From the sequence record NC_019517.1: DNA of 64,000 bases; one strand, written 5' to 3'. A program made the translations under genes and the position numbers. The DNA is from Escherichia phage FV3. Below the pieces are notes generated by a model that worked only from the letters and a program-made list of their open reading frames with translations, was not told the DNA's origin and searched no databases. Positions 17,147 to 52,838 of this stretch are shown here, in pieces. How positions within the stretch are numbered: the first letter of the stretch is position 1; each line of letters opens with the position of its first letter.

Positions 17147-17175
17147 TTGACTAATAGTATTAGATAATCTATAAT
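17147..17175 (+). promoter_or_regulatory. strong sigma70-like promoter TTGACT-N17-TATAAT
   Basis: near-perfect hexamers; followed by 5'-UTR hairpin GGCTCAC...GTGAGCC and SD. Confidence 0.65.
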
Positions 17176-17215
17176 AATGGCTCACTTTGTTGGTGAGCCA
17201 GAAATGGAGACAGAT

Positions 17216-17677
17216 ATGAGTAATGTTATGATTCCTAAAAAGACATTTATTTCAGTTACTTTAGATTTCCTATCTACTGTTCCCGGGTTTAACGTTCGCA
17301 CACGAAACGGTCTCCGAGCTGCACTCTTTGCTGTAGGGTTTGATTTAAAAAATATTGATGTTCTTCGTGGAAAAAACGTTAGATGCAAAAATAAGCCAAC
17401 CCATTATCGAAAGGCAGATGTATTTGCTGGTGTCATGCGTGCAGACTTTAGATACCCGCAGATGTATAACGGTGTAGATATTTTAGATGTAGATAAAGCA
17501 CCCGGTGAGGCAATGCTTGTTCAAGATCTTCCGTATGATATCCCCGTAGAAGATCGTGTTAATGTGAGAAAGTATACAAAACAATCTGAAAAGGCTGAAG
17601 ATATTCATATTGTTGATGAACCTTTCAATTTTGAAGATCTGCATCGCCTGGAAAAATTATTCGGTATTGAAAGCTAA
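17216..17677 (+). CDS. hypothetical protein (153 aa)
   Basis: in-frame ATG with SD GGAGA after the 5'-UTR hairpin; track ORF begins earlier at 17177. Confidence 0.45.
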   Translation: MSNVMIPKKTFISVTLDFLSTVPGFNVRTRNGLRAALFAVGFDLKNIDVLRGKNVRCKNKPTHYRKADVFAGVMRADFRYPQMYNGVDILDVDKAPGEAMLVQDLPYDIPVEDRVNVRKYTKQSEKAEDIHIVDEPFNFEDLHRLEKLFGIES

Positions 17678-39497: not shown

Positions 39498-39657
39498 CTG
39501 GTGCACGATTGCATACCTTGGGTAGTTAATCTCATTACAGAGCGTTTAATAGCGGCCTGTAAACAGATCTCTATTTCGAGCGTAGCGAGAACGCACGTCC
39601 GTTTTGACCCAAATCACCATACGCTCGGATTTTAACCAAACCCTCGCGGCGTTTCTG

Positions 39658-39686
39658 TTGACACATTACCGCTCCTGTGATAGTAT
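39658..39686 (+). promoter_or_regulatory. sigma70-like promoter TTGACA-N17-TAGTAT
   Basis: consensus hexamers. Confidence 0.5.
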
Positions 39687-39706
39687 CCTCACATAGTTTG
39701 TAGAAT

Positions 39707-39808
39707 ATGAAATACGCAATGAAAACATTATCTGAGGTTTTAGTGGTGATCCTGATGATCATTACGTCCATAGCAGTTGTTGCCGGAATACTCACGGGTG
39801 GAACATGA
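39707..39808 (+). CDS. hydrophobic micro-protein (33 aa)
   Basis: MKYAMKTLSEVLVVILMIITSIAVVAGILTGGT; ATGA overlap with next ORF. Confidence 0.35.
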   Translation: MKYAMKTLSEVLVVILMIITSIAVVAGILTGGT

Positions 39809-39993
39809 CCAACACACATGCACCTAAAGAGACATCTGAAGAAGCGACTATAGAGAAAAACTTCAATTCTGAGGATTCTTTATCTCCGTCTCAGGTAGAT
39901 CCTGAGGCTGATGACCTGACGTGGGAAGACATCGTAGACATCTGGTTCTCTATCATGCCTGAGCACGAAGAGTTCAGAGGTGGGAGACTATGA
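39805..39993 (+). CDS. hypothetical acidic protein (62 aa)
   Basis: track ORF. Confidence 0.4.
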   Translation: MTNTHAPKETSEEATIEKNFNSEDSLSPSQVDPEADDLTWEDIVDIWFSIMPEHEEFRGGRL

Positions 39994-40112
39994 AGCACCG
40001 AGCCCACATAAGTTTATCATGCTAAAGCATGGCCTGAAGAGGCAAACGTGCATAATTCCAGTGCATTGGAACGTATAACCCTGTTCACACTCTCATTTCC
40101 AGAGGAGATTTT

Positions 40113-40328
40113 ATGAAGATAGAAATATTTGGTGGAGCTGACAACACTCGTGGCCTGATTTACCTTGAATTCGATGAATCATACCTGCCAGAGGTGTTAA
40201 ATATAGACTCTGTTGCTGAGGCTTTGGGAGTAAACCCTAAAGAACTCCACTCTTGTGCTGAGATCGATGGTTGGGAAGAGACCATGAACATTGATTTCAG
40301 TGAAGTAGAGGATGAACCGCTGGACTGA
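40113..40328 (+). CDS. small acidic protein, paralog family A-like
   Basis: MKIEIFGG...acidic C-terminus. Confidence 0.45.
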   Translation: MKIEIFGGADNTRGLIYLEFDESYLPEVLNIDSVAEALGVNPKELHSCAEIDGWEETMNIDFSEVEDEPLD

Positions 40329-40508
40329 CACACAATTAGCTGCCCGGCTAAAGTGCTGGAAGCACCTATAACACATCTTTCAACTAAATTTCCTACCACC
40401 ACAATCACTTACCTCCCACACATGACTGTTTGCTTGTTTAGTGAGCAGTCATTCCTTGACATTCTTGCCTATCCTGATAAAATTAAGTTCTTCTCTTTTC
40501 TTTTACCG

Positions 40509-40535
40509 AGTAATTCGGGTTTTCTGTTCTCTTCG
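40509..40535 (+). terminator. possible terminator closing the plus-strand block
   Basis: hairpin CCGAGTAATTCGG followed by T-rich tract (approximate). Confidence 0.35.
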
Positions 40536-42559
40536 GTTTGAAGGGGTATGGAGATACACCTGAGTGAACAGGGTGAACAACCGAACCTTTAGCTATGGCA
40601 TTAGCATGGCGAAGCGGACGGGTGACGAAAGAGGGGCCGGAGGACACCAGTCACTGCCATATGGTATATGGGTGATAACCTGAAGAGTCTGAATAAGTGT
40701 TTAAGTACCAGTCAGAGGAAAAGGTGAATGGTAGCCGAAGGGGGAGGGGGGTTTCTTGTATCTTTAATTTGTATACTTTATATACACTTGTAAACCAATT
40801 CAATTAGAATATGGATACCACACAAAGTGGATAGAGGCAAATATTCCCTATTAAACTTGAATTATTTATAGAAAATACCACAACACTGCTTAAGTCTTTG
40901 ATTTTACACACAAATATTACAAATATCCTGCCTCTATATTTAACATACCTGTAACATATTCCATACTCTCCCTGATTGATCAATTCCCCAACTACATCCC
41001 CATATTTTCCCTTCCTGTACTACCCCTGCCCCGCCGGGAGTCCCGTCATATCTGGCTTTCCAGCAAATATCACACCCACAAATATCATTGCCTGAAGAGG
41101 GTTTCATCCCATAATACCTGCCTTACCCGAAGAGCGCTTCATACACCACGTAAATTTTTTAATTGACCTGCAATTTTCCTGCAGACCCACCCCCTGCCCA
41201 GCCGGAGAGGTTGGCTTTTCCCACACAGGCCTGAAGAGTCAGCCAGAAATATCTGAAGGGGGTCCAGTTCTACCACGATTTTGACCTGACCTACAGGAGC
41301 GCTGCCAGGCGGACGAAATGGGAATACTTCTCATTCTTATAACAATTCTCAAATATCGGGGCAGTGAGGCAAATTAATAGGCGAGGCCGTTCACACAGTG
41401 GCACAACATTTGCAAGCTATTTTGCGGGGGTGAATGAGAATACCTATCATTGTGAGAATAGTTATCATTACGGGCAATTTAACATAATACCCATTATGCG
41501 CACCACTGGCGATACATACAGGGATTGATAACATGGGTTACTGTTTACGCATATAACAATTGTATTTCTTATTATTTGTGGGGGATATAGTTAGCAACCA
41601 ATAGATTAGTTATTAACCTGCGGACTTCTGACCGTCTAGACGTCCAAACGCCCACACCACAAGGATTATACATACACTCCTGCATGTAAACAGGGCCGCA
41701 AAAATGCTACCATACCAGTTTGTAAATTTTCCATGCAGCACTTGACAAAGAGGAGAAAAACTTGTCTGACACACTGGACACCTTATACACCTTATACACT
41801 TTCGATACAATAACGATTGTTATTATTTCATGTTTCACTGTTCACGTATAGATTGTTCCTGCATAGACTGTTTACGCCTGGATAGTTTACACCTTGACAG
41901 TTTACGCAGATATGATAAGCCATGACATTCGTTTGCATAGTTGCCTTATTGTTACAGGTAAAACAATTACATTGTTAACTATTTCTTATCTTTCTCTTAG
42001 TCATCTAATGATTCCAGTCAGTATAGTTATGTACAGTAAACATTAGACGACTAAATATTTCTCTGATTATAGTAACCTATCGTGACAATTTCTAACTGTT
42101 TACGAAAAATGTTGACACCTGGGCAGGTTTATGTTATGCAGTTTGTACGAATAATTATTTTGTACAGGTATTGACTATTCCGTTATTCTGTGGTTGGAAT
42201 AAATACTTTGCAGGCTATAGAATGGTGATCGTACGTGGATTCTGAGATCTGTCGGCTATAGTTACACCCGATTTTTCACGTAGGACACGCTTTTTGGTTT
42301 GTGTAAGTGTATGACTTATAAGGGTTTTTAATTGTTGACAGTATACTGAAGATGTGCATCAGGTTAAATTTTGTGCAATAGCTGCATTACGTGCAATTTT
42401 GGGAGAGAAAACGGGTAAAAATAGCACCGCTACCACACAATGAAAGGTTATGCAATAGCTATTTTACATGTATATTTGTACAGTGTGCGGGATTGATGGC
42501 TCGTCAATTATTCCACTTGTCAGGTAGGGCCGTTTATGGTAGGAAAAGAGCAGACAAAA
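40536..42559. other. gene-free repeat-rich region between convergent blocks; candidate origin, regulatory or ncRNA locus
   Basis: no credible ORF over 2 kb; motif CTGTTTACG in at least 5 copies (41540-42100), CCTGAAGAG x3, GAGAAYRNTTATCATT x2. Confidence 0.5.
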
Positions 42560-42593: not shown

Positions 42594-42857
42594 TTATTTG
42601 TTGCTCATCCAGTTTTCCCAAGCTGCCTGATAATCTGCCTCACTGCGGCGGATCTCTTCTTGTTCTTCAAGCCGGATCTCTTCTTCCAGGTACCCAAGGA
42701 TATCGGATTTTTTGGTCTGGCGTAACATCCAATCATCTTTTTTACGAGTAAAGATCTTGTACGCTTTCTCGCAAACCTCTTTTTTACTACCTTTTTGGAC
42801 TTCAAGAACTTTGTAGGCCATGTACTGAACTAGTTTGAGCTGATCAAGACGTTTCAT
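42594..42857 (-). CDS. hypothetical protein (87 aa)
   Basis: track ORF. Confidence 0.45.
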   Translation of the reverse strand: MKRLDQLKLVQYMAYKVLEVQKGSKKEVCEKAYKIFTRKKDDWMLRQTKKSDILGYLEEEIRLEEQEEIRRSEADYQAAWENWMSNK

Positions 42858-42920
42858 GATGTTTACCTCTTTATGGGGTTCTGGTTTGGTGTGGGCCTTT
42901 TGGCCCGTGTCATTATCTTA

Positions 42921-43193
42921 TTACTTGCGGCGGCAAAATTCAAGCGTTTTTAATTGATAATCTTCCTCAGCCTGGAGTACAACCGCCTCGATCATTTCGT
43001 TGGCATTGGTGAAGCCATACCCTTTAGCGAACTCATCCGCGCCACCTTCGTGATCATGTTCTGCGTTCATCGCTTCCACAAAATGGAATTCCAGGTTATT
43101 GAGATAAGGGCTTGATGTTCCGTCCTCTTTTTCGATGAGATCCCAAATAGCATTAAAACGTGATTCGACTTCTTGGTTAATCCAGCTTGACAC
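42921..43193 (-). CDS. hypothetical acidic protein (90 aa)
   Basis: track ORF. Confidence 0.45.
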   Translation of the reverse strand: MSSWINQEVESRFNAIWDLIEKEDGTSSPYLNNLEFHFVEAMNAEHDHEGGADEFAKGYGFTNANEMIEAVVLQAEEDYQLKTLEFCRRK

Positions 43194-43533
43194 GGCGTTT
43201 TCCTCTCTTCTGGTTGTTGTGTGGGCACTTTTGCCCCTTCAAGGTAAATGCTACCCCACCACCCGGCAGATGTCAACGGTTTTTATAGTTTTTTATATAA
43301 CGGGCACCCCTGGTGATTGTCTCCCCCCGTCGCCAGGTGCCGCCCGTGAAACAAGTATAACAAAAAACAGGACCATTGCAAGCCCTGTTTATTATCTTAA
43401 AACCAGGTGCCAACCGTTTCCAATAGATCACTGACTATCAGGACAATACTGATCAGCACATACCTAACCATAAAGGGAAAGATCGCCAACATTGCCGCCA
43501 CGATCCCCATGGTGATAATTATCTTTCTCATGA

Positions 43534-43818
43534 TTAACGGGTCACGTAAGTTTTCCCGTTTACTGTTATCGGCAGATCCTCCAGGTCTGGATCTTCTTTA
43601 AGGTCGCGAGCAAGCTCACCGCACCGGATGCCCTCGAATCCGTAGTACTCTGTTGTGCCGTCCTGGAAAGTTTTTGCGGCAAGGCATAACCGATAAGTAA
43701 CACCGATTTGATTGACGGCATGGATATCAGTTAGATCTACCTCTTTTGCCAGCTCTTTAGCCATTACAGGCGCATTAAGTCCAATAACCAGGGCAACCAC
43801 TGCGATCATCTTTTTCAT
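43534..43818 (-). CDS. small secreted protein with signal peptide (94 aa)
   Basis: N-terminal MKKMIAVVALVIGLNAPVMA signal. Confidence 0.5.
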   Translation of the reverse strand: MKKMIAVVALVIGLNAPVMAKELAKEVDLTDIHAVNQIGVTYRLCLAAKTFQDGTTEYYGFEGIRCGELARDLKEDPDLEDLPITVNGKTYVTR

Positions 43819-43907
43819 GTTGTCTATCCTCTTTCTGCTGCGTTTAAGGCGGTTACCGCCGCCTGTTTATGCTTTGTTAGTTAATGGGGCGTACGGTATA
43901 GATTAAA

Positions 43908-44132
43908 CTATGCTGTACGCTCAACTATAACAACGGCTTGAGGGATCTCACCTTCCACCACTATCAAGGCTTTTTTCTGCGTGATAGATATCTTTACCCG
44001 CTTCAGCGTGGCGGTAAAATCTTTCATTTCGTCACGTGGTGTTTTAGTGCAATACCAGATCTCAGGCTTACCTATTTGCAAGCCGCGTAAAAATTCCGTT
44101 TTGCCTGTTTTGTTCGTGATCATTTGTTTCAC
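43908..44132 (-). CDS. hypothetical protein (74 aa)
   Basis: track ORF. Confidence 0.4.
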   Translation of the reverse strand: MKQMITNKTGKTEFLRGLQIGKPEIWYCTKTPRDEMKDFTATLKRVKISITQKKALIVVEGEIPQAVVIVERTA

Positions 44133-44310
44133 CTTACCCGATACCGTGGGAAGATAGGATCATGTTAGCCATAGTTGCAACCACTCCAACCGATAATGCC
44201 ATGCCAACTACTACAACCGTGAAAATTTTTTCTAACATGATTCCACCCTCATTAATGGGCGTTGCCTTATTGCCCCGCCCTATGTCGTACACTTTTCTTC
44301 TGATCCTCTG

Positions 44311-44574
44311 TTAGCATACGATAGCGATCACGCCGCCACAAATAAAAGGTAAATCAAAACTGTCTAACTTGCAAGCTATTTTTAAACGAAAGGCAACATA
44401 AAAGAAAAGTTGCAAACAATCGATCATTGTGTTAGCTGTTGAAACGCTGCCAGCATTAAACACCACCCCGCCCACGGCGTTAAACGTTGCGTTACTCACG
44501 AAAGTGAAAAGGCAAGCGATCACGGTGGCGATCATAATGTTGCGTTTTGTCAATCTGTAAATGATGTTTTTCAT
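44311..44574 (-). CDS. small membrane protein (87 aa)
   Basis: hydrophobic helices. Confidence 0.4.
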   Translation of the reverse strand: MKNIIYRLTKRNIMIATVIACLFTFVSNATFNAVGGVVFNAGSVSTANTMIDCLQLFFYVAFRLKIACKLDSFDLPFICGGVIAIVC

Positions 44575-44643
44575 TCTGTCATGTTGGCGGCATCATTGCC
44601 GCCCTACGAAATACATTCTACCCGATTTGTAATTGTTGTCAAA

Positions 44644-44868
44644 CTAATTTTTACAAGGGATCAGTAAACTTCTTGCTACTGCTTCGCGTAGTCCTTGACT
44701 TTTTATCAGATCTATTGTTGCAGGATGGCAAGTAAAAGCCTTTGACCATTTTTGATCCCCTGGTTTACGGGCAAAAATGTAAACTTCCCCGTCGATTTCA
44801 TCCCAACGAGTATTGCTTGTTAGTTTTTTAAGCGCCATGATGATTTCCCTTTTAGTTGTGAGCGGCAC
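44644..44868 (-). CDS. hypothetical protein (74 aa)
   Basis: track ORF. Confidence 0.4.
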   Translation of the reverse strand: MPLTTKREIIMALKKLTSNTRWDEIDGEVYIFARKPGDQKWSKAFTCHPATIDLIKSQGLREAVARSLLIPCKN

Positions 44869-44913
44869 TATTGCCGCCCTATGTGATACATCTTAAACTA
44901 ATTTAAAACGTTG

Positions 44914-45147
44914 TCAACACTTTTCAAAAAATTTTTCTGCCGTGATATTCTTCCCGGTAGGGTTCGCTACTTTCAAAATTTTATCATGCACTGGACGCCC
45001 AAAAGAATAAGCGCCGTACACAGTGCACCAATAATCGCCGTCAGGCTGTACTATTACCGCCGCATAGGGTACGCCTTTTTCGTTTTTGCTGACAAAATAG
45101 ATCACATTGCCATTAATAGCCTCAGCGCGTTTAATTTGTTCCATCAT
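44914..45147 (-). CDS. hypothetical protein (77 aa)
   Basis: track ORF. Confidence 0.4.
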   Translation of the reverse strand: MMEQIKRAEAINGNVIYFVSKNEKGVPYAAVIVQPDGDYWCTVYGAYSFGRPVHDKILKVANPTGKNITAEKFFEKC

Positions 45148-45213
45148 GATGATTCACCTATCTTTATTTTTTTTTCATAGTTTCAGGAGGGGCCTTTTTC
45201 GGCCCCGCCAGGC

Positions 45214-45513
45214 TTATTTATTGATGGCGTGCAGCGGGAAAGGTACGCCAGGTTGATAGATAACTTTTACAACCTCATCGGGGCAAAAGAAATTACAAAA
45301 TTCACCCCGATAAGCTTCATCTTCTTTTAATTCTTCATCAACATACTTAAAAAAGTAGTCGATGCTTGGATAATCCTGGCCGGGATTATAGTCGACCATT
45401 GTCAGGACTAGTTCAAGATCGTTGCGCAGGATATGCATACCCGCTTTTAAGTATTTTGCTTCCATTTCTACTACATCGCCAACGGTAACAATAGCCATGA
45501 TTTTAACTCCCAT
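45214..45513 (-). CDS. hypothetical protein (99 aa)
   Basis: track ORF. Confidence 0.4.
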   Translation of the reverse strand: MGVKIMAIVTVGDVVEMEAKYLKAGMHILRNDLELVLTMVDYNPGQDYPSIDYFFKYVDEELKEDEAYRGEFCNFFCPDEVVKVIYQPGVPFPLHAINK

Positions 45514-45724
45514 CTATCCGGTTAATGATTGGGGGGCCGCCCCCCCTGGCACGTCCTATTATCCATATTGTAGGGCTTGATGCAAGTACTTCTTTAAAAA
45601 TTTTTAAGCGCCTTGGGGGCCGCTGTAGCGCTAAAATAACAAAGGCCATGCAACCGCATAGACTTTATGTGATTATGTCGCTGCAGGCCCCGCCACGGGC
45701 CTTATTTTGCATCATTTGCCGGAA

Positions 45725-46045
45725 TTATCTGGAGAAAACATCGTTCACAATAGCGATCACAATGCCGCCCACCTTGTCACGGTCAACAATGCACAAATCA
45801 CCATAGATCATGTGGTAGTCTGGATGATCTTTCACGGAATAGTCAATGAGTGTCTTCTTATCGTCCAGCTTTTTGACTTCCATGGTCATTGTAATGAATT
45901 GATCGTTAAAGGCACTATTGCGGAAGACCATTACCTGGCCGCCTTGACATCCAGTGATCTCAACTTCCACGCCGTCTACGATCTGACCATCAAAGAAATA
46001 AAGATTATTGGCGGGTATAAACATGATCATTGCTCCTTTTTGCAC
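45725..46045 (-). CDS. hypothetical protein (106 aa)
   Basis: track ORF. Confidence 0.4.
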   Translation of the reverse strand: MQKGAMIMFIPANNLYFFDGQIVDGVEVEITGCQGGQVMVFRNSAFNDQFITMTMEVKKLDDKKTLIDYSVKDHPDYHMIYGDLCIVDRDKVGGIVIAIVNDVFSR

Positions 46046-46068
46046 TGATTATTTTAACAGGGTTTAAA

Positions 46069-46113
46069 TTTACTTTATTGATGGCCCTGGAGTCAAGGCC
46101 ATCTAAAAATAAA
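46069..46113. repeat. 45-bp conserved intergenic element, copy 1
   Basis: TTTACTTTATTGATGGCCCTGGAGTCAAGGCCATCTAAAAATAAA with GATGGCC/GGCCATC inverted repeat. Confidence 0.7.
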
Positions 46114-46115
46114 CT

Positions 46116-46316
46116 TTACAGGCCTACAATATCTTTAATTCGTTTTACTGCTGCCTCAGCGCCTTGAGGGTAAAAATTATGGTAACCAATCACGCGGGTA
46201 ATACTGATCGCCGCCTGATGATCTTCATAATACCCCTTGAATATTTCTTGACCATCAACCAGCACAGCAATTTTTTCTTCTTTTTTGAAGTTAATAACGC
46301 GGATATTGTTGCTCAT
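46116..46316 (-). CDS. hypothetical protein (66 aa)
   Basis: track ORF. Confidence 0.4.
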   Translation of the reverse strand: MSNNIRVINFKKEEKIAVLVDGQEIFKGYYEDHQAAISITRVIGYHNFYPQGAEAAVKRIKDIVGL

Positions 46317-46461
46317 TTTGTTTCTCCTTTTGGAACTTTGTCTGTGTGGTGGGGAGTGTCTCCCCGTTGATTGTTATTATCCATATTTTTGACCGGGTTG
46401 CAACACCCCGGAAGAAAAATTTTTTGAAAAAAGTTAGGCCCCCAGGGATCGGGGGCCGTTA

Positions 46462-46581
46462 TCAGTTACTTACAGCGATAAAATACATCCCTACGCCTAA
46501 CAATATTTCAAGGGCGATGATCTCAAGCCATACCATAACACGGCGCGCCTTATCGGTGCGGGGCTTATCCTTGGGTGTCAT
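46462..46581 (-). CDS. hydrophobic micro-protein (about 39 aa)
   Basis: minus-strand ATG after SD GGAGG; MTPKDKPRTDKARRVMVWLEIIALEILLGVGMYFIAVSN. Confidence 0.3.
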   Translation of the reverse strand: MTPKDKPRTDKARRVMVWLEIIALEILLGVGMYFIAVSN

Positions 46582-46800
46582 CGTCTCCCCCTTTCCTCCT
46601 GTTAGTAGTGACGTGGTTTACAATGGTCCCCAGGAGTACTATCGCCACGCACATTACGAGAAAAATTATTTCTTCCGTTGTTCGGTCCATTATTATAAAA
46701 GTCCTCAAGATCAGGCCTAAAAGTAAATCCTTCGTTATTGAATCCATCCCGCCAGGCGGCTGGCCTCAAATCTTCACTAAATGGATTAATTAACGTGGCA

Positions 46801-47205
46801 TTATTTAAACGGCTGGCCCACATATTTTCTATTCCTCTCAAATAGGCGATCCGCCTCAGTTAAACAAATCTCATGGGCGTGATCTCTGGTTTTAGCTTCA
46901 TCGAAAACCTGTTGTGCAAGGCTGCAACGTAGGGAGACTGGAAGATCGCTATAATAGGCGTTAACAAACGTTTGAGCGTCGTACAGGTCTGAAAATACTT
47001 TACCCTTTCTATTATTCCCCTTGTCAACAATTGCAAGGATAACCAATACAATAGTTGCAACCACCCCCAGGAAAATAGATATAATAAACCATAAAAAGGC
47101 GGATCTCCCCATCTTGCCAGCGATCCAGGCGTTAAACAAGGCAACCAATATAGCCAAAATAATAAATTCCATTCTATGTACCTCTTTTACAGTTCTGATC
47201 AACAA
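46801..47205 (-). CDS. membrane protein (134 aa)
   Basis: two N-terminal TM helices. Confidence 0.45.
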   Translation of the reverse strand: MLIRTVKEVHRMEFIILAILVALFNAWIAGKMGRSAFLWFIISIFLGVVATIVLVILAIVDKGNNRKGKVFSDLYDAQTFVNAYYSDLPVSLRCSLAQQVFDEAKTRDHAHEICLTEADRLFERNRKYVGQPFK

Positions 47206-47236
47206 TAAGGCGGCAAATATGCCGCCTGTTACCTGA

Positions 47237-47617
47237 TTAAAAATTATCGCCGTAAATCTTTCCGCTTTCTACCCATACCACCACGCGAGGCATACTATCC
47301 CACACGTCTTGTTTTAGATTGAGCGCGTGCAATTCTTCGGTGGTGCTCATACCGGGCACGGGCTGATTGTATACTGCAAAACGACCACCCGCATAATCAT
47401 AGGCCAGGGTTAAATCACACTGGATCATCTTTTTGATCATGGCATTAAGCATGGCGTTAGCCGCATACTGATCACGTTTTAAAGGCAACTCTTTGATTAG
47501 TTTGCGATAGTTTTCGATATGGTCGCACACTGTTTCACGCGGAAGATCTTTCATATCTTCACGGAATGTAACCAGGTTAAACATAACGGTGTCAATAGCC
47601 TTGGTAGTGTTTTTCAT
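47237..47617 (-). CDS. hypothetical protein (126 aa)
   Basis: preceded by promoter TTGCAA-N16-TATATT and 5'-UTR hairpin. Confidence 0.45.
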   Translation of the reverse strand: MKNTTKAIDTVMFNLVTFREDMKDLPRETVCDHIENYRKLIKELPLKRDQYAANAMLNAMIKKMIQCDLTLAYDYAGGRFAVYNQPVPGMSTTEELHALNLKQDVWDSMPRVVVWVESGKIYGDNF

Positions 47618-47705
47618 GATTTTATCCTCTTTGTTTTGTGTGGGGCAAGACGTTTGCCCCTTGAGTTTTAATATAGCAGGTTTTTAGATTATTGCAACAC
47701 TTTAT

Positions 47706-48329
47706 TTATGAAAAACTCATCTCCCCATATTCATCCACATCAAACCTCCAATCATTGGCCTCAATAAGGCCGATCAGGTTTTCGGTAGTGAACTGTTCTA
47801 GATAGGCCTCCTCCAGGTCTACGTAAACCTTGCGGGATAGCTCCCGTACCGTCTCGGTGATCAGCTCTTCCAGGTCTTCCACTTTGTTTTCTTGTTTAGC
47901 GGTCAGATCTAGCCATGTGGTATCAATGTACCCGCTTACAGTGTTTTCATGGCTGTAATGGCTGTACTTGTCGCGTTCAATACTGGCGGATAGTTCGCCA
48001 TCGTGCATTGTGCCGAACAAGTGACGAATTGATCTGAACTTGGTCAGGGCCTTGACTTTACGCAAGAATTTTTCTAAGTCTACATTTTCAGCACTGATCG
48101 ATGCGCCATCGCCTTGACACCAAAAGCCGGACCAATGTACTTCGGTATCTTCAAGGCCGTACTCTGGAAAAACTTGTTCTTTATAGTATTCAATTACATT
48201 TTCTGCGAAAAAATCATCCCCGCTGCGTTCTTCTCTTTCGCGGACCATTTCAATGGCTTTTTCTTTTTGTTCGTCGGTCAGCACGTCGAAAGATAAATTG
48301 TAACCTGTGGTAATGTTAACGGTGGTCAT
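47706..48329 (-). CDS. hypothetical acidic protein (207 aa)
   Basis: preceded by promoter TTGACA-N16-TATAAT (minus strand, about 48376-48404) and 5'-UTR hairpin. Confidence 0.5.
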   Translation of the reverse strand: MTTVNITTGYNLSFDVLTDEQKEKAIEMVREREERSGDDFFAENVIEYYKEQVFPEYGLEDTEVHWSGFWCQGDGASISAENVDLEKFLRKVKALTKFRSIRHLFGTMHDGELSASIERDKYSHYSHENTVSGYIDTTWLDLTAKQENKVEDLEELITETVRELSRKVYVDLEEAYLEQFTTENLIGLIEANDWRFDVDEYGEMSFS

Positions 48330-48403
48330 GATATTTTCTCCTGTTTTCTTTGTTAGTGGCGGGAAGTTTTCCCGCCTATGTTTTTAATTATACTTATTGA
48401 GAT

Positions 48404-48664
48404 CTACTTGTCAACACTATTTTTTAAATTATTGTGGCGCAAAATGTTTAAAATCTCCTCAACGTCATCAACACGGCGGCAATTTTTAAACGCTACCAAT
48501 TGCCCCATGATTTTAATCACTGGGCGGCCTTGCCAGTGCCCCTGAAGAAAGCGCGCCTTGACTTTATCGGTGGAACTATCACGCCACCAAATAGCCTTGT
48601 TGTTGCAGTAGTAAAAATTATTCAGGATAACATCAACTTTATCAAAATTTTTTAATTTACGCAT
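48404..48664 (-). CDS. hypothetical protein (86 aa)
   Basis: track ORF. Confidence 0.4.
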   Translation of the reverse strand: MRKLKNFDKVDVILNNFYYCNNKAIWWRDSSTDKVKARFLQGHWQGRPVIKIMGQLVAFKNCRRVDDVEEILNILRHNNLKNSVDK

Positions 48665-48883
48665 GGCGTTTACTCCTTTCTCTCTTTGATGTGGTTAGTA
48701 TAGCTAACCTGTTGACGATGTCAATGATATTTTTAACGCCATAAAACGGCCCTAGGCGATGCTTTCAGGTTAAAGGGGGGCGATTGCATAGGTGGGGGCC
48801 TTTTTGGCGCTTACAGGGCCAACCAGGGGCGCTATTCGTAGGATAGAAATAAAAAGCCCCGCACAATGGCGGGGCGTTGGTTG

Positions 48884-49081
48884 TTATTTGTCTTTATGGC
48901 GGTATCGTTCTGCCTGTCGTTCACGTTCCAAAAGTAGGCCGGGCAATTTACGATCATAATGATTCCGCCAGATCTTCCCAAACCTTTTTGGCTTATTCAG
49001 TTTATTGTTGCGCTGTCGGCGTTCTGGCAGCTCTTCGGAATCATGAGGGCGCTTTACAATTTTCTCGAAATTAATTTTCAT
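48884..49081 (-). CDS. highly basic small protein (65 aa)
   Basis: internal ATG with SD AAGGGGGG; track ORF 48884..49105. Confidence 0.4.
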   Translation of the reverse strand: MKINFEKIVKRPHDSEELPERRQRNNKLNKPKRFGKIWRNHYDRKLPGLLLERERQAERYRHKDK

Positions 49082-49424
49082 ATATTCCCCCCTTGCTAAC
49101 TTCAATATTGGCCTGAATAGCCCGGATACGGCGCTTTATAACTTCCTGATCTGTGTGGTCGTATCCCCAAAAGTCTACAATTTTTGCGCCCCCCGCCTCC
49201 AGGCGGTATAGTGTTTCCTGCATTTTGTAAGCCGGGATCGGTCGCGGTGTTACTTGGTCGCCTTCTTTATTTTTATACTTTATAATATAATCTTCGTTAT
49301 CGTTGAATGTCCAAAATGGATATTCTGCAAGGGCGGTACTTCCTCTTTCCTTTTTATCCTGGATCTTGTTTACAATTAAAGCCGTAGCAATAGCGCCAAT
49401 AATAAAACTAGCCCCGCTGATCAT
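49071..49424 (-). CDS. membrane-anchored protein (117 aa)
   Basis: N-terminal TM helix. Confidence 0.45.
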   Translation of the reverse strand: MISGASFIIGAIATALIVNKIQDKKERGSTALAEYPFWTFNDNEDYIIKYKNKEGDQVTPRPIPAYKMQETLYRLEAGGAKIVDFWGYDHTDQEVIKRRIRAIQANIEVSKGGIYEN

Positions 49425-49500
49425 GTGTACTTTCTCCTTTCATGGTGTTAATAAATTATCTTTATAGATGGCCCTGCAACCAGGACCACCGAAAAAATAA

Positions 49501-49746
49501 CTATTTCACAATGCCTACAAAACAGATCCCGCCTTCACCTATGTAAGCAATATCGGTAACTTTATAATTTGTCAAGATCTGCTTATTTAGTTCATTAATA
49601 AAATCGGTCATTGCGTTGGTGTAGTTGTCTTCCATGTCTAGGGAATAATCCCAGGCGTAGACCTTTTTACGCCCGAAGCCTTTTACCATGATACGGGCGC
49701 TTTTGGTGTTGGTGGGCGCATAATATTTTGTGATTAGTGCTGCCAT
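49501..49746 (-). CDS. hypothetical protein (81 aa)
   Basis: track ORF. Confidence 0.4.
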   Translation of the reverse strand: MAALITKYYAPTNTKSARIMVKGFGRKKVYAWDYSLDMEDNYTNAMTDFINELNKQILTNYKVTDIAYIGEGGICFVGIVK

Positions 49747-49787
49747 GGGTTTTAACTCCTCATTAGTTCAGTGTTAACAGTGTAAAG

Positions 49788-49832
49788 TTTACTTTATTGA
49801 TGGCCCTGGAGTCAAGGCCATCTAAAAATAAA
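49788..49832. repeat. 45-bp conserved intergenic element, copy 2
   Basis: identical core to copy 1. Confidence 0.7.
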
Positions 49833-49834
49833 TT

Positions 49835-50176
49835 TTACTCGTTTTCTTCCAGCTCTGAAAGCTCTTCTTTCACTTCTTCCAGCTCTGTCTGCAATTCCTG
49901 GTATTCTTCATCGTCCTCAATATCCAGGCTGTCGATGTAGTCGCTAAATCCGCAGCGGTAAGCGATAGGATCTAACTCCTTGAGGATACGCGACGGAAGA
50001 AAAGAAATGTTTCCGATCATAATTTCGCCGTAGATCTCGTCTAGCCATTCATCATAGTTTTCGTCGTACTTGTCCTCGTCGATTTCAAAGTTATCGATCT
50101 TGTTCTCAAGGTCTGCGATCTGTTTTTTCAGCGCGGCGATCTGCATAGCTTTTTCTGCGGCGGTCATAGTAGTCAT
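49835..50176 (-). CDS. hypothetical acidic coiled-coil protein (113 aa)
   Basis: track ORF. Confidence 0.45.
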   Translation of the reverse strand: MTTMTAAEKAMQIAALKKQIADLENKIDNFEIDEDKYDENYDEWLDEIYGEIMIGNISFLPSRILKELDPIAYRCGFSDYIDSLDIEDDEEYQELQTELEEVKEELSELEENE

Positions 50177-50409
50177 GGTGTTTTCTCCTTTTTTGTGTTT
50201 TGGGAAGTTTTCCCGTTTACGTGTTTAAGTATACCGATTTAGGTTAGCTTGTCAATTAAAAATTTAAGAAAAATTTTGCAAAACTGTTGGCGCTACTCAT
50301 TAACATTTGCGCCAGGATGTAACCGACAACGCAAACGATAATAGTTACCTTTGTGTATTGGCGTGTAGTGCTCATCTTAAAGCCCCCTTTTTCGCTTAGT
50401 TGAGACTAG

Positions 50410-50454
50410 TTTACTTTATTGATGGCCCTGGAGTCAAGGCCATCTAAAAATAAA
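50410..50454. repeat. 45-bp conserved intergenic element, copy 3
   Basis: identical core to copy 1. Confidence 0.7.
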
Positions 50455-50455
50455 C

Positions 50456-50860
50456 TTAATAAGTTTTCAGTACTTTCCCGTCCAACCTGTCAAGCTGGAT
50501 CTCGATAGCTGCAGAAAATCTATTGTACACCACGTCGCCCATAGAATCCAACCAATCTATGACGTTATATACCTGCTCTTTATTCTTACAGGTCCGGATC
50601 CGTTTCATGATGTAAGCCGGATCAATATTGGTACTCTCGTTGGTGTTCCCCTGTACCTGGTTTGCCGTATTAGTTACATCTTTAATGGCCTTTACCACCA
50701 CCTGGAATGGCTTTAAGGTGCCTTTTGCGTTCATCTCACGCGCTTTTGCGGCGCGGTTGTTGTATGTTACACAACGGCGGCAAATGTTGATCAAATGCAT
50801 GTCAATAATTTTTTCATCGTTTGCCAGCTCGTTCATGATGCGGCGTACGTTCTTATTCAT
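50456..50860 (-). CDS. hypothetical protein (134 aa)
   Basis: preceded by promoter-like TTGACA and 5'-UTR hairpin GGCGGGAA...TTCCCGCC. Confidence 0.45.
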   Translation of the reverse strand: MNKNVRRIMNELANDEKIIDMHLINICRRCVTYNNRAAKAREMNAKGTLKPFQVVVKAIKDVTNTANQVQGNTNESTNIDPAYIMKRIRTCKNKEQVYNVIDWLDSMGDVVYNRFSAAIEIQLDRLDGKVLKTY

Positions 50861-50942
50861 GATCTTTTTCCTTTATGTTGGCGGGAAACATTCCCGCCTT
50901 TTGTGCCCAGTTTACTTGAATTTTGCAGCGTGTCAACAATTT

Positions 50943-51341
50943 TTATTCGTGGGCGCATGTTACAATGTGCTTTTTATAGCCCAGGCGGTCAGCAAGTGCC
51001 GCCAAAAACTCTTCTTCGTAGATCCAGCCGTCGGCAGTGATCCCCATAGCATTTAATGCGCTCTCAAGTGCTGCGTTGGCTTTATCATAACCGTGACCGC
51101 TCGCCTTGCCGCCAGTATAGCCGTACTTATTGTTCTTGTTGTCGTGTATCCAAAAAACGCAGTAGTAAGTGTTCCCGCTGGCGGCGGCATAATACCGGAT
51201 CTCAGCTACTTCGTGCAAATTATTGTCATCGTCCAGGCCCACCAGATTATAGGCCTTGTAAAATCCACGATCACGGCGGCAGTTCTTGACATCAGAAAAA
51301 GAAAAGTCCGCATTATCAAAATTAAAGGTGGTGGTTTTCAT
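50943..51341 (-). CDS. hypothetical protein (132 aa)
   Basis: track ORF. Confidence 0.45.
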   Translation of the reverse strand: MKTTTFNFDNADFSFSDVKNCRRDRGFYKAYNLVGLDDDNNLHEVAEIRYYAAASGNTYYCVFWIHDNKNNKYGYTGGKASGHGYDKANAALESALNAMGITADGWIYEEEFLAALADRLGYKKHIVTCAHE

Positions 51342-51405
51342 GATTTTATCCTCTCAGTGTCTTTTGTGCTTTTAGTGTATTTGGTGTCGGCCTATATGTC
51401 AATAC

Positions 51406-51603
51406 TTATTTTTTATTAAACCAGTGGTTGATCTGGCCTTTTGTCAGGGCGCAACGATTAAGCTGTTGCCGGGTATAGCTCTGACCGCGACGGAATTTAT
51501 AAAGGCCTTGCCCGTTGTTGATGGTCACATCCACCTGGCAAATCATTTGATCGGTGACCACCTGGCGAGTGCTGCGACGTACTTTAATTCCGTAGGCGTT
51601 CAT
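51406..51603 (-). CDS. hypothetical basic protein (65 aa)
   Basis: track ORF. Confidence 0.4.
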   Translation of the reverse strand: MNAYGIKVRRSTRQVVTDQMICQVDVTINNGQGLYKFRRGQSYTRQQLNRCALTKGQINHWFNKK

Positions 51604-51899
51604 GATTTTTTATCCTCTCTGTTAATTAGTGTGGTGTTGTTCACCTTGCGAGGATAAGAATAACAAAAACTGTCCGAGCTGTCAACCACTAGTTAAAATT
51701 ATTTTTTGGGTAGAATTCTCCAGCCGCCGCCCCTGCCAGGTTGACCATCATTTTTTCGTACTCTTCTTTATGTTCCAACGCTTCCGCCATAGCCTTTTCA
51801 ACCAGGGCGATAGCCTCAGCGTTATTAATAGCTACATTTTCCAGGGGGATCCTATTACCTTTCATTTTTGTACCTCCTCTTCAATTGTTACCTATCCTA

Positions 51900-52838
51900 T
51901 AACATAGGCCCACCAGGCTGGCCCCGCCAGGTTGCAGCGGTTAGCGCATCAGGTTAGAATTTTTTTTTTTTTGAAAAGTGTTGACAGCGGCCCCGCCAGG
52001 TGGCACAATATACATATCGAAAGGACGGCAGGCACCGGTGACGGGGGAGACAACCACCGGGGATGGGCGCTGCATGAAATGAGAACGATTATCATTATCG
52101 TCTAAAAATTTATGCAAAAACTTCTTGCTTTCTTTGTCCTGTGTGATACTATAATAACAAGCCGGGGCAGTAGGGGCCGGGAGACAATCACCGGGGGTGC
52201 CCGTTATTCTGCAAACGAGAATGATTATCATTCAAAATTCTAAATGAGAACTTTTCGCATTTCATAAATTTAGTTAGCATGCTAATTACCTACCGTGACA
52301 ATTCTATATAAAATAATACCTCATAAAATATTCCCATATAGAAATTTTAAAAATCCATTTCTGAAAACGAAAAATCGCTTTCGTTCCCAAAAATTTTAGA
52401 TCTGGTGCTGGACCAATTTCAAGAAAATCCGATTCAGAAAACGAAAAACAGATCGAGTACCGAAAAATTTATCGAGAAAAATTTTCAGAAAATCCAATCT
52501 TTGAAATGAAAAACAGATCGAGTACTGAGAGAGATGTATCAAAACTTACTGATAATAATTAACTTATTGTCATAAAAGGCCGAAAGTAAGTTGGGAAAGT
52601 TCTGGTAGAAGGGTGAGAGTGTGTGCGGAAAATCTGGAACGGTGATTTGAAGTACGGTGCGAACGATAGGATGATCAGCACAGCTTATCGTGCCTGTCTT
52701 GAAAAAATCCATTTTAGTTTTCGATCCATTTTCTGATTTTCTAAGAATTTTAAAATATCCGGCCAGGTAAAATATCAAAAGGAGGAAATCCATTTTAGAA
52801 ATCCTCCTTATGTTTGATGTGCCAGGGATTTTCAAGTA
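51900..52838. other. second gene-free repeat-rich region; candidate regulatory, origin or ncRNA locus
   Basis: 14-T run, plus-strand promoter-like TTGACA-N17-CACAAT at about 51981, duplicated 70-bp unit, AAATCC(A/G)(T/A)T repeats, 22-bp direct repeat GAAAAACAGATCGAGTAC. Confidence 0.5.

Follow-up and report, generated by a model that had tools for sequence, protein, structure and literature searches.

Repeated promoter–hairpin cassettes upstream of small minus-strand genes in Escherichia phage FV3 and their possible role in protecting the 5′ ends of early mRNAs

In a 64,000-nucleotide (nt) stretch of the genome of Escherichia phage FV3 (NC_019517.1; hereafter the window), the genes between positions 42594 and 51603 are repeatedly preceded by one compact unit that consists of a σ70-type promoter, a GC-rich hairpin at a nearly fixed distance downstream of the –10 element, an open leader, a Shine-Dalgarno sequence (SD) and a start codon. 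By reading the minus strand and listing every intergenic region, we identified nine such promoter-bearing cassettes, all of them minus-strand units located between 43.2 and 50.9 kb. Their occurrence is real and far beyond chance. We tentatively propose, with somewhat less than even confidence, that the hairpin is a 5′-terminal stem-loop protecting early mRNAs from 5′-end-dependent decay, as part of a repeated expression cassette that would also act as a recombination joint. Stabilization is the best-supported mechanism that we infer from the sequence.

All genes within this 9-kb region are small and encoded on the minus strand. The region is 96.6% identical to that of Escherichia phage vB_EcoM_YN3 and 91–96% identical to those of dozens of rV5-like phages (genus Vequintavirus), to which the window also belongs, and the genes served by the cassettes are all annotated as “hypothetical protein” in eight annotated relatives. 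According to the rV5 genome paper, the region sits in a leftward transcription unit (genes 10-1-238-164); the paper lists σ70 promoters matching those described here (P168, P185, P186, P192, P194, P195 and P195A) as well as the ordinary terminators t164, t177, t181 and t184, and makes no mention of hairpins behind promoters (PMC3606486). Our literature searches turned up neither transcript maps for Vequintavirus, Phapecoctavirus or Justusliebigvirus nor an account of these hairpins.

The –35 elements of the nine cassettes, by which we refer to them below, start at positions 50936, 50255, 48414, 47697, 46403, 45585, 44917, 44642 and 43276. The order of elements is an A/T-rich run, the –35 element, 16–17 nt, the –10 element, a spacer, the hairpin, a leader, the SD and the start codon. 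The A/T-rich run lies directly 5′ of every –35 element (for example, aaaaatagtgTTGACA or ttaaatttttaaTTGACA), which reads TTGACA, TTGCAA or TTGCAT, and in a promoter scan the cassette promoters score between 9 and 12 of 12. The spacer between the –10 element and the hairpin measures 9–13 nt, and 9–11 nt in eight of the nine cases. The stems are perfect, GC-rich, 5–8 bp long and composed of a G-run followed by a C-run (such as GGGGGG..CCCCCC or GGCGGGAA..TTCCCGCC) around a loop of 3–5 nt, and the A/C-rich, T-poor leader extends 11–34 nt from the stem to the start codon. The individual cassettes are as follows.

50858–50936 (minus strand): cassette before gene 50456–50860; TTGACA(50936)-16-TAAACT (10/12), spacer gggcacaaaa, hairpin 50898–50880 GGCGGGAAtgtTTCCCGCC (also written GGCGGGAATGTTTCCCGCC), A-rich leader, SD, ATG at 50860; predicted folding energy (ΔG) –14.6, z –3.5.
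50174–50255 (minus strand): cassette before gene 49835–50176; TTGACA-16-TATACT, 13-nt spacer, weak 5-bp hairpin 50214–50202 GGGAAaacTTCCC; family D3, z –0.8 (weak).
48327–48414 (minus strand): cassette before gene 47706–48329; consensus TTGACA-16-TATAAT (12/12), spacer taaaaacata, hairpin 48376–48358 GGCGGGAAaacTTCCCGCC (also written GGCGGGAAAACTTCCCGCC), leader actaacaaagaaaac, SD AGGAG, ATG at 48329.
47615–47697 (minus strand): cassette before gene 47237–47617; TTGCAA-16-(TG)TATATT (9/12), spacer aaaactcaa, hairpin 47660–47642 GGGGCAAacgtcTTGCCCC (also written GGGGCAAACGTCTTGCCCC).
46314–46403 (minus strand): cassette before gene 46116–46316; TTGCAA-16-GATAAT, spacer aacaatcaac, hairpin 46365–46351 GGGGAGacaCTCCCC, CA-rich leader.
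45496–45585 (minus strand): cassette before gene 45214–45498; TTGCAT-16-GATAAT, spacer aggacgtgcca, hairpin 45546–45531 GGGGGGgcggCCCCCC; family D12, fold z-score not significant.
44836–44917 (minus strand): cassette before gene 44644–44838; TTGACA-16-TAAGAT, spacer gtatcacata, hairpin 44879–44860 GGGCGGCAatagTGCCGCTC with one G·U pair; family D2.
44572–44642 (minus strand): cassette before gene 44311–44574; TTGACA-16-TAGAAT, spacer gtatttcgta, hairpin 44604–44586 GGGCGGCAatgaTGCCGCC; the ATG follows after only 11 nt, SD unclear.
43191–43276 (minus strand): cassette before gene 42921–43193; TTGACA-17-TAGCAT, spacer ttaccttgaag, 5-bp hairpin 43236–43223 GGGCAaaagTGCCC, CA-rich leader, GTG start.

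Some of these units are evidently related: the 50255 cassette is a paralogue of the 48414 cassette (78% identity), and the 45585 promoter is paralogous to the 46403 promoter. The 44917 cassette is the version in the window that comes nearest to the consensus of Phapecoctavirus and Justusliebigvirus described below. For three additional hairpins of this type, no promoter is recognizable.

44257–44280 (minus strand): hairpin GGGCGgggcaataaggcaaCGCCC before gene 44134–44238, promoterless in this phage.
43848–43863 (minus strand): hairpin GGCGGcggtaaCCGCC before gene 43534–43818, promoterless, intercistronic, no U-tract.
42893–42906 (minus strand): hairpin GGGCCaaaaGGCCC before gene 42594–42857, promoterless, intercistronic, no U-tract.

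An earlier note on this DNA had described the architecture of promoter, 5′ hairpin and SD as repeated upstream of minus-strand genes, and the nine cassettes bear this out. The three examples that it quoted, upstream of genes 47706–48329, 47237–47617 and 50456–50860, are exact to the base, with promoters scoring 12/12, 9/12 and 10/12, respectively.

An automatic count on the minus strand between positions 42001 and 52000 gave 10 promoter-plus-hairpin units, compared with a mean of 0.12 and a maximum of 2 in 100 dinucleotide shuffles; two of the ten are chance pairings with true terminators, and one real cassette was missed. No such unit was found on the plus strand of 42–52 kb or within 52–64 kb, and only three background matches occur between 2 and 39.5 kb of the window. 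When the real promoters and hairpins are left where they are, nine hairpins start 7–13 nt past a –10 element, against 0–2 in every other 7-nt bin between –70 and +76. In ten related phage stretches, the hairpin starts 9–11 nt past the –10 element in 55 of 70 unique cassette sequences, with an offset of 10 or 11 nt in 49 of the 70. When all loci are pooled, starts at 10, 11 and 12 nt account for 32, 22 and 23 cases, and almost none lie elsewhere. No offset peak appeared in 0.95 Mb of arbitrary viral contigs, where 376 promoters and 1536 hairpins yielded two matches at 8–13 nt. We also scanned IMG/VR with the pattern TTGACA-N16-17-TANNNT-N9-11-GGCGGSAA, which forces the stem sequence but not the remaining layout: a complementary arm completes the hairpin in 35 of 138 cases among the matches listed, versus none of 97 matches in the whole collection at a spacing of 24–26 nt. 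Within the window, at least six different stems occupy one kept position (GGCGGGAA, GGGCGGCA, GGGGCAA, GGGGAG, GGGGGG and GGGCA), which suggests that the position of the hairpin matters while its stem sequence does not.

A pyrimidine followed by a purine is the signature of σ70 transcriptional start sites, which usually lie 7–8 nt from the –10 element. Among 57 unique cassettes from the window and the ten related stretches, spacer position 7 is a C in 43 and position 8 an A or G in 53. In 47 of the 57, this signature predicts that 3–4 nucleotides precede the stem unpaired (range 2–6). Because a promoter for the host RNA polymerase lies upstream, the hairpin would be transcribed and, with the start placed as predicted, form roughly nucleotides +4 to +22 of each early mRNA. 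Each of the nine predicted leaders of the window, folded from the putative start to 15 nt into the gene, forms a 5′ hairpin module and then an open leader; SD and start codon are unpaired in most of them. Fold z-scores lie between –2.6 and –4.7 for six of these nine predicted 5′ untranslated regions. Among unique sequences, internal G·U pairs outnumber A·C mismatches 33 to 4, which points to sense-strand RNA and not to double-stranded DNA. A search of Rfam 15 gave no family match, the only hit being Clostridium-PBP, which scores 33 bits (E 0.25) where the gathering score is 94.

As short GC-rich stem-loops in intergenic regions, the hairpins resemble intrinsic (rho-independent) terminators, and prediction programs and GenBank records call them so. 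They could terminate or attenuate upstream transcription, which would make the intergenic regions composite terminator-promoters. We consider this unlikely. The earlier note had described the hairpins as lacking a U-tract, and indeed all 12 hairpins of this type carry only 0–3 T residues in the 8 nt after the stem, compared with 5–7 in five canonical terminators of the same 9 kb; at most one T follows the stem in 43 of the 57 cassettes. The canonical terminators, supported by the rV5 terminators t164, t181 and t184, are the following.

48856–48875 (minus strand): canonical intrinsic terminator, GCCCCGCcattgtGCGGGGC followed by TTTTTATTT, serving as the contrast case.
47227–47208 (minus strand): canonical terminator.
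46457–46437 (minus strand): canonical terminator.
43390–43365 (minus strand): canonical terminator.
42581–42563 (minus strand): canonical terminator.

Moreover, the cassette hairpins do not stand at the end of a unit upstream of the promoter, but 9–13 nt downstream of the –10 element of the next gene in all nine cases. From the U-tract contrast, it therefore appears that the phage uses normal terminators at unit ends and something else behind its promoters. An efficient terminator at this place would abort the transcripts of its own promoter at about +25, and termination offers no reason for a fixed distance of 9–11 nt from the –10 element. Such a distance is not kept by the closest known elements, the promoter-early stem-loops (PeSLs) of the T4-like phages RB49/phi1, PST and nt-1, which sit at varying positions or ahead of the promoter (Arbiol et al. 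2010, PMC2839356; Comeau et al. 2014, PMC4122927). PeSLs combine a σ70 early promoter with a G-run/C-run stem-loop in ORFan-rich variable regions and were proposed to act as terminator/attenuator and recombination site (PMC2839356, PMC4122927). One of them cut read-through into lacZ as strongly as rrnB T1 (PMC2839356), and some damping of read-through would be sensible where almost every gene has its own promoter. Database records speak for termination as well: in those of EdH4 and HdK5, the orthologue of hairpin 50898–50880 and others are labeled “putative transcriptional terminator,” and the record of ASO2A repeats one arrangement from each intergenic region to the next, a WebGeSTer “terminator” 11 nt behind an annotated promoter. 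In the ASO2A paper, terminators are only counted, and the hairpins are not described. Such labels on promoter-proximal hairpins are present in GenBank entries MK327930, MK373780 and MZ726793. They are probably a systematic artifact of predictors that tolerate weak U-tracts, and as evidence for terminators of upstream genes, a role that we disfavor, these records are unlikely to be correct. Antisense terminators were considered and rejected: the T-rich sequence that follows some hairpins on the plus strand is complementary to the A/T-rich spacer and –10 element, several cassettes lack it, and the plus strand has no genes that it could terminate.

To follow the cassettes through related phages, we scanned seven Vequintavirus loci as well as stretches of the Phapecoctavirus ESCO13 and the Justusliebigvirus muut. 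Orthologous cassettes were found, with differences, in the seven Vequintavirus loci. The 47660–47642 hairpin reads GGGGCAAACGTCTTGCCCC in the window and in YN3, and its exact reverse complement GGGGCAAGACGTTTGCCCC occurs in five of the seven compared phages. This inversion of the whole hairpin (47642–47660), seen relative to EdH4, FFH2, HdK5, slur16 and pangalan, looks like a mutation of the template-switch or cruciform type that keeps the stem. A similar flip of the loop is seen in the slur16 copy of the 50880–50898 hairpin. In Mangalyan, the stem orthologous to 47660–47642 has gained an extra G-C pair; the 46365–46351 stem varies between GGGGAG..CTCCCC, GGGGA..TCCCC with another loop, and GGGGAaacaTCCCC; and a metagenomic orthologue of the 48376 hairpin, GGTGGGAA..TTCCCGCC, contains a U·G pair. 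Single stem mismatches were found in pangalan and in one IMG/VR contig.

Vequintavirus, Phapecoctavirus and Justusliebigvirus all carry the cassette in multiple copies in their early ORFan regions. In ESCO13 and muut, which belong to another subfamily, the Stephanstirmvirinae, it is denser and more uniform than in the window: TTGACA-16/17-TAnnnT, gtatcacata, the hairpin GGGCGGCAAT(A/G)GTGCCGCTC or GGCGGGAA..TTCCCGCC, a short leader and the SD. Ten or more clean copies occur per early region in each phage, and relaxed hairpin criteria yield 22 candidate units in the 12-kb early region of ESCO13 and 16 in 18 kb of muut. The first 50 kb of ESCO13 show weak background only. An IMG/VR search with the 207-amino-acid protein found only two close loci, a number too small for statistics, while six distant homologues are located in other contexts and lack the cassette. 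Mycobacteriophages are the source of many completed IMG/VR pattern matches, among them Thonko (99.5% identity) and Imvubu-like contigs. These GC-rich phages carry several copies of a layout in which TTGACA-17-TAACTT or TAAAGT is followed after about 11 nt by GGCGGGaa..CCCGCC and then at once by SD and ATG, for example TTGACA-17-TAACTT tcattcgtgtga GGCGGGaaataCCCGCC gggaagg..ATG. A literature search on mycobacteriophage cassettes retrieved only an unrelated palindrome of Cluster O.

We therefore return to protection of the 5′ end, which we favor tentatively. The unit combines a strong host σ70 promoter, a C-purine start signature in a 9–11 nt spacer, the hairpin, an open leader and the SD. A stem-loop preceded by about 3–4 unpaired 5′ nucleotides would hinder the pyrophosphohydrolase RppH and the 5′ sensor of RNase E, and this hindrance could prolong the life of phage early messages. 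By locking G/C-rich bases away, the hairpin might also keep the ribosome-binding region open whatever lies upstream. RppH of B. subtilis is reported to need at least two and preferably at least three unpaired 5′ nucleotides. The requirement of RppH and RNase E for single-stranded 5′ ends is the explanation given for 5′ stem-loop stabilizers such as ompA and papA (PMC3997798). The earlier note had suggested that the stems either stabilize early mRNAs or gate translation. The first suggestion agrees with the position lock, the predicted 3–4 unpaired nucleotides and the missing U-tract. Gating we rejected, with SD and start codon unpaired in most of the predicted leaders and the stem ending 11–34 nt before the start.

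Several points weigh against protection. A leader of 3–4 unpaired nucleotides is at the edge of what blocks RppH, and protection could be only partial; the start sites of the cassettes are themselves predicted from sequence alone. The strong early promoters at 48724, 51402, 54208 and 59336 have short leaders devoid of hairpins, and the hairpin is therefore not needed for expression. The three promoterless hairpins of the same type make a role independent of a primary 5′ end possible. The fixed offset could in part reflect common descent of the copies, fold z-scores are not significant for the 50255 and 45585 cassettes, and the excess of G·U pairs comes from related copies and not from independent events. 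Finally, MAFFT and RNAalifold produced no consensus structure for 34 unique hairpins, as stems that differ in both length and sequence defy a sequence-based alignment; we consequently used structure-anchored pair counts instead of a covariation statistic.

In an extended version of this mechanism, which we regard as rather unlikely, the 5′ hairpin would be a “self” mark by which early phage mRNA escapes a 5′-end-dependent attack that the phage itself unleashes on host transcripts. If so, it would provide a sequence-independent way to tell phage from host mRNA, and the mycobacteriophage layout would be a convergent use of the same trick. Srd of phage T4 stimulates RNase E on host mRNA (PMC4980113), and gp11 of rV5, located outside the window, is annotated as an Srd-like anti-σ factor. 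This link is weak: gp11 has no Pfam match, its best PHROG is labeled HNH endonuclease (E 9e-108), and the matches to Srd (E 6e-9) and σ70-decoy (E 6e-12) cover its N-terminal part only.

The second proposed property of the cassettes, as recombination joints, draws on a BLAST comparison of the window with seven relatives, which revealed a few breakpoints. The joints at 44282/44295, 44595, 44645 and 44912 lie inside cassettes and are flanked by the repeats TAGGGCGG or CATTAATGAGGGTA or by the –35 hexamer TTGACA, while those at 43390/43397 and 45711/45712 are not located in cassettes. In the window and YN3, gene 44311–44574 is inserted exactly at gtatttcgtaGGGCGG, leaving the downstream hairpin promoterless and flanked by TAGGGCGG; EdH4 carries the full promoter TTGACA-16-TAGACT gtatttcgta before the same hairpin as that at 44280–44257 in the window. 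In Mangalyan, the orthologue of gene 44134–44238 is preceded by a cassette with the hairpin GCGGGAAtacTTCCCGC. In EdH4, this cassette drives an extra gene and is followed by a second one (TAGACT gtatttcgta GGGCGgggcaataaggcaaCGCCC), with CATTAATGAGGGTA at both joints. In YN3, the module between two –35 hexamers (44645 to 44912) is replaced by a different gene. The genome comparison thus supports the view that cassette segments provide short homologies for the insertion, deletion and swapping of small early genes; as the cassette is repeated many times, its conserved segments may therefore serve as recombination homologies in addition to any role in expression.

The hairpin might even have little function in expression, the unit persisting as a repeated, PeSL-like mobile recombination module that spreads, becomes homogenized through exchange and owes its geometry to common descent. 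This we judge quite unlikely, although the gene-swap breakpoints inside cassettes fit it. So do the paralogous pairs in the window (61 nt at 72%, 54 nt at 78% and 29 nt at 76% identity), the close similarity of spacers and stems in ESCO13 and muut (gtatcacataGGGCGGCAAT..), and the distribution of one 86-nt cassette of the window, which matches 164 phage records and occurs at up to 11 places per genome. However, cassettes of the window with unrelated spacers and stems keep the offset of 9–11 nt, stems have been kept through inversion, pair gain and G·U intermediates, and the same layout recurs in mycobacteriophages with unrelated flanks.

A second type of cassette exists in the same region as four minus-strand copies of 63 nt with 60–100% identity (family D1).

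50410–50472 (minus strand): copy 1; a 10-bp hairpin GATGGCCTTGactcCAGGGCCATC carries the –35 element TTGACT of a TTGACT-18-TAAACT promoter.
49788–49850 (minus strand): copy 2, D1, 84%.
49456–49518 (minus strand): copy 3, D1, 60%, diverged (GGTGGTCCTGgttgCAGGGCCATC).
46069–46131 (minus strand): copy 4, D1, the reference copy.

The T-rich 5′ flank of this hairpin pairs with the A-rich 3′ flank to give a bipartite stem of about 21 bp (ΔG about –26), and a U-tract is present on neither strand. This type fits the PeSL subclass with a stem-loop over the –35 element, or it could represent an RNase III-type processing site. Its hairpin, lying upstream of the start site, can act only on upstream transcripts, which lends some weight to the idea that the hairpins in general are processing boundaries in polycistronic read-through RNAs, where they would block 3′-to-5′ exonucleases and thereby protect the upstream cistron, or cap 5′ ends newly made by RNase E (selective processing and stabilization). 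Nested read-through RNAs are implied by the promoters before almost every gene and the few terminators, and three hairpins of the first type are promoterless and purely intercistronic. Nevertheless, processing leaves the lock to the –10 element unexplained, and as a general account it seems improbable to us; it is compatible with a 5′-terminal function and does not exclude it.

The lambda nut and HK022 put sites are promoter-proximal, as are the hairpins described here, and the hairpin RNA could accordingly be bound by a phage or host protein, either for antitermination of the boxB/N or put type or by a translational repressor that shuts early genes off. The core GCGG(G/C)AAT(A/G)GT and its flanks are conserved among Phapecoctavirus and Justusliebigvirus copies, and canonical terminators lie downstream of several cassettes. 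But loop size (3–5 nt) and sequence vary within one genome, the inverted orthologue has a complementary loop, the stems in the window are too diverse for one sequence-specific binder, and no Rfam family matches, all of which makes this explanation very improbable. The least probable is that the palindromes are double-stranded DNA operators near +12, at which a dimeric phage repressor would switch early promoters off as at lac O1: strong promoters do have perfect palindromes across part of their initial transcribed region, with a half-site that recurs (GGCGGGAA / GGCGGCAA), but one genome contains at least six different half-site sequences, their spacing varies from 3 to 5, three copies are promoterless, and the 33-to-4 excess of G·T over A·C pairs is unexpected for recognition of double-stranded DNA.

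One claim of the earlier note did not hold, namely that the plus-strand gene at 17216 shows the same layout. Here, the hairpin begins 2 nt past the –10 element, and a start site 7–9 nt downstream would fall in its 5′ arm.

17147–17218 (plus strand): look-alike of different geometry; TTGACT-17-TATAAT, hairpin 17178–17200, SD, ATG at 17216.

Other features were noticed in passing. Unrelated genes have their SD, start codon and first codons in common at 47603–47636, 51327–51360 and 51599–51622 (GAGGATAAAATCATGAAAAaCACtACC; MKNTT/MKTTT); it therefore seems that the shared module reaches into the start of the coding sequence. Immediately 5′ of the 43276 cassette, the 203-nt gene-free stretch 43194–43396 (minus strand) contains the terminator 43390–43365, which overlaps a promoter-like TTGCAA-16-(TG)TATACT, and a long GC-rich hairpin CGGGCGGCACCTGG...CCAGGGGTGCCCG followed by TTATATAAAAAAC; it may represent a small RNA or serve as a regulatory leader. 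Some 3 kb (∼39500–42500) in which all open reading frames are tiny and doubtful separate the plus-strand block, which ends at ∼39444, from the minus-strand early block and probably correspond to the “non-coding” box of the rV5 genome map. An array of the iteron-like or regulatory kind is suggested by the 307-nt intergenic region 52232–52538, which has direct repeats of 47 nt (two copies, 52350–52470) and 20 nt (three copies, 52077–52261) as well as an A/T-rich hairpin of 17 bp. Between 398 and 478, four overlapping short palindromes built from TGTCCG/CGGACA lie within 80 nt and adjoin the minus-strand gene 554–904, possibly as an operator array.

If the hairpins are 5′-terminal protectors, many of the “terminator” features recorded in GenBank for rV5-, phAPEC8- and phi92-like phages, which are widely isolated for therapy and biocontrol, are wrong, and so are the transcription-unit maps derived from them. 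The cassette would also allow direct tests of how a lytic phage preserves its early transcripts during the degradation of host mRNA. As a compact, naturally optimized expression unit of consensus promoter, 5′ hairpin, open CA-rich leader and SD, it could be reused in synthetic biology.

Among known systems, intrinsic terminators share the short GC-rich intergenic stem-loop, but the cassette hairpins differ from them by the missing U-tract and by their place after the promoter of the next gene. The 5′ stabilizers of ompA and papA are similar in that a stable hairpin stands a few nucleotides from the (predicted) 5′ end, position counts more than stem sequence, and an unstructured ribosome-binding region follows. 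They differ in that the 5′ end is here predicted from sequence and the hairpin belongs to a multi-copy phage cassette fused to a promoter, not to the leader of a single gene. A single-stranded tail of the predicted 3–4 nt is reportedly at the upper edge of the range tolerated in the work of Emory, Bouvet and Belasco of 1992. The late leaders of phage T7, among which the phi10 transcript begins with a GGGAGACCACAACGGUUUCCC stem-loop, also couple a phage promoter repeatedly to a stem-loop at the extreme 5′ end and then to a strong ribosome-binding site. In T7, however, these are late promoters read by the phage's own RNA polymerase with a stem starting from +1, whereas the cassettes use host σ70 and serve early genes.

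The closest known concept is the PeSL, which neither the rV5 genome paper nor the literature found by full-text search describes for this lineage. As in PeSLs, an A/T-rich stretch, a σ70-consensus early promoter, a G-run/C-run stem-loop, the SD and the start codon are united in an intergenic unit of about 80–100 nt. The cassettes are likewise concentrated among small genes without known function and stay at background in 2–39.5 kb and 52–64 kb of the window and in 1–50 kb of ESCO13. Joints of gene insertion, deletion and replacement between close relatives fall inside the units, and the second cassette type, with its hairpin over the –35 element, matches a named PeSL subclass. A further trait ascribed to PeSLs is that mini-circles of gene plus cassette are excised during infection. 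In contrast, the lineage is Vequintavirinae/Stephanstirmvirinae and not T4-like, and the hairpin is locked 9–11 nt downstream of the –10 element, from where it would be transcribed from its own promoter, whereas the RB49/phi1 hairpin occurs in five position subclasses, mostly between or over the hexamers, and that of PST lies just upstream of the promoter. The terminator/attenuator role put forward for PeSLs fits poorly here, given the missing U-tract and the position. By their sequence features, we regard the cassettes as PeSL-like units with a position-locked 5′ hairpin in rV5-, phAPEC8- and phi92-like phages, a comparison that extends the PeSL idea of regulatory cassettes as gene-shuffling joints beyond the T4-like phages.

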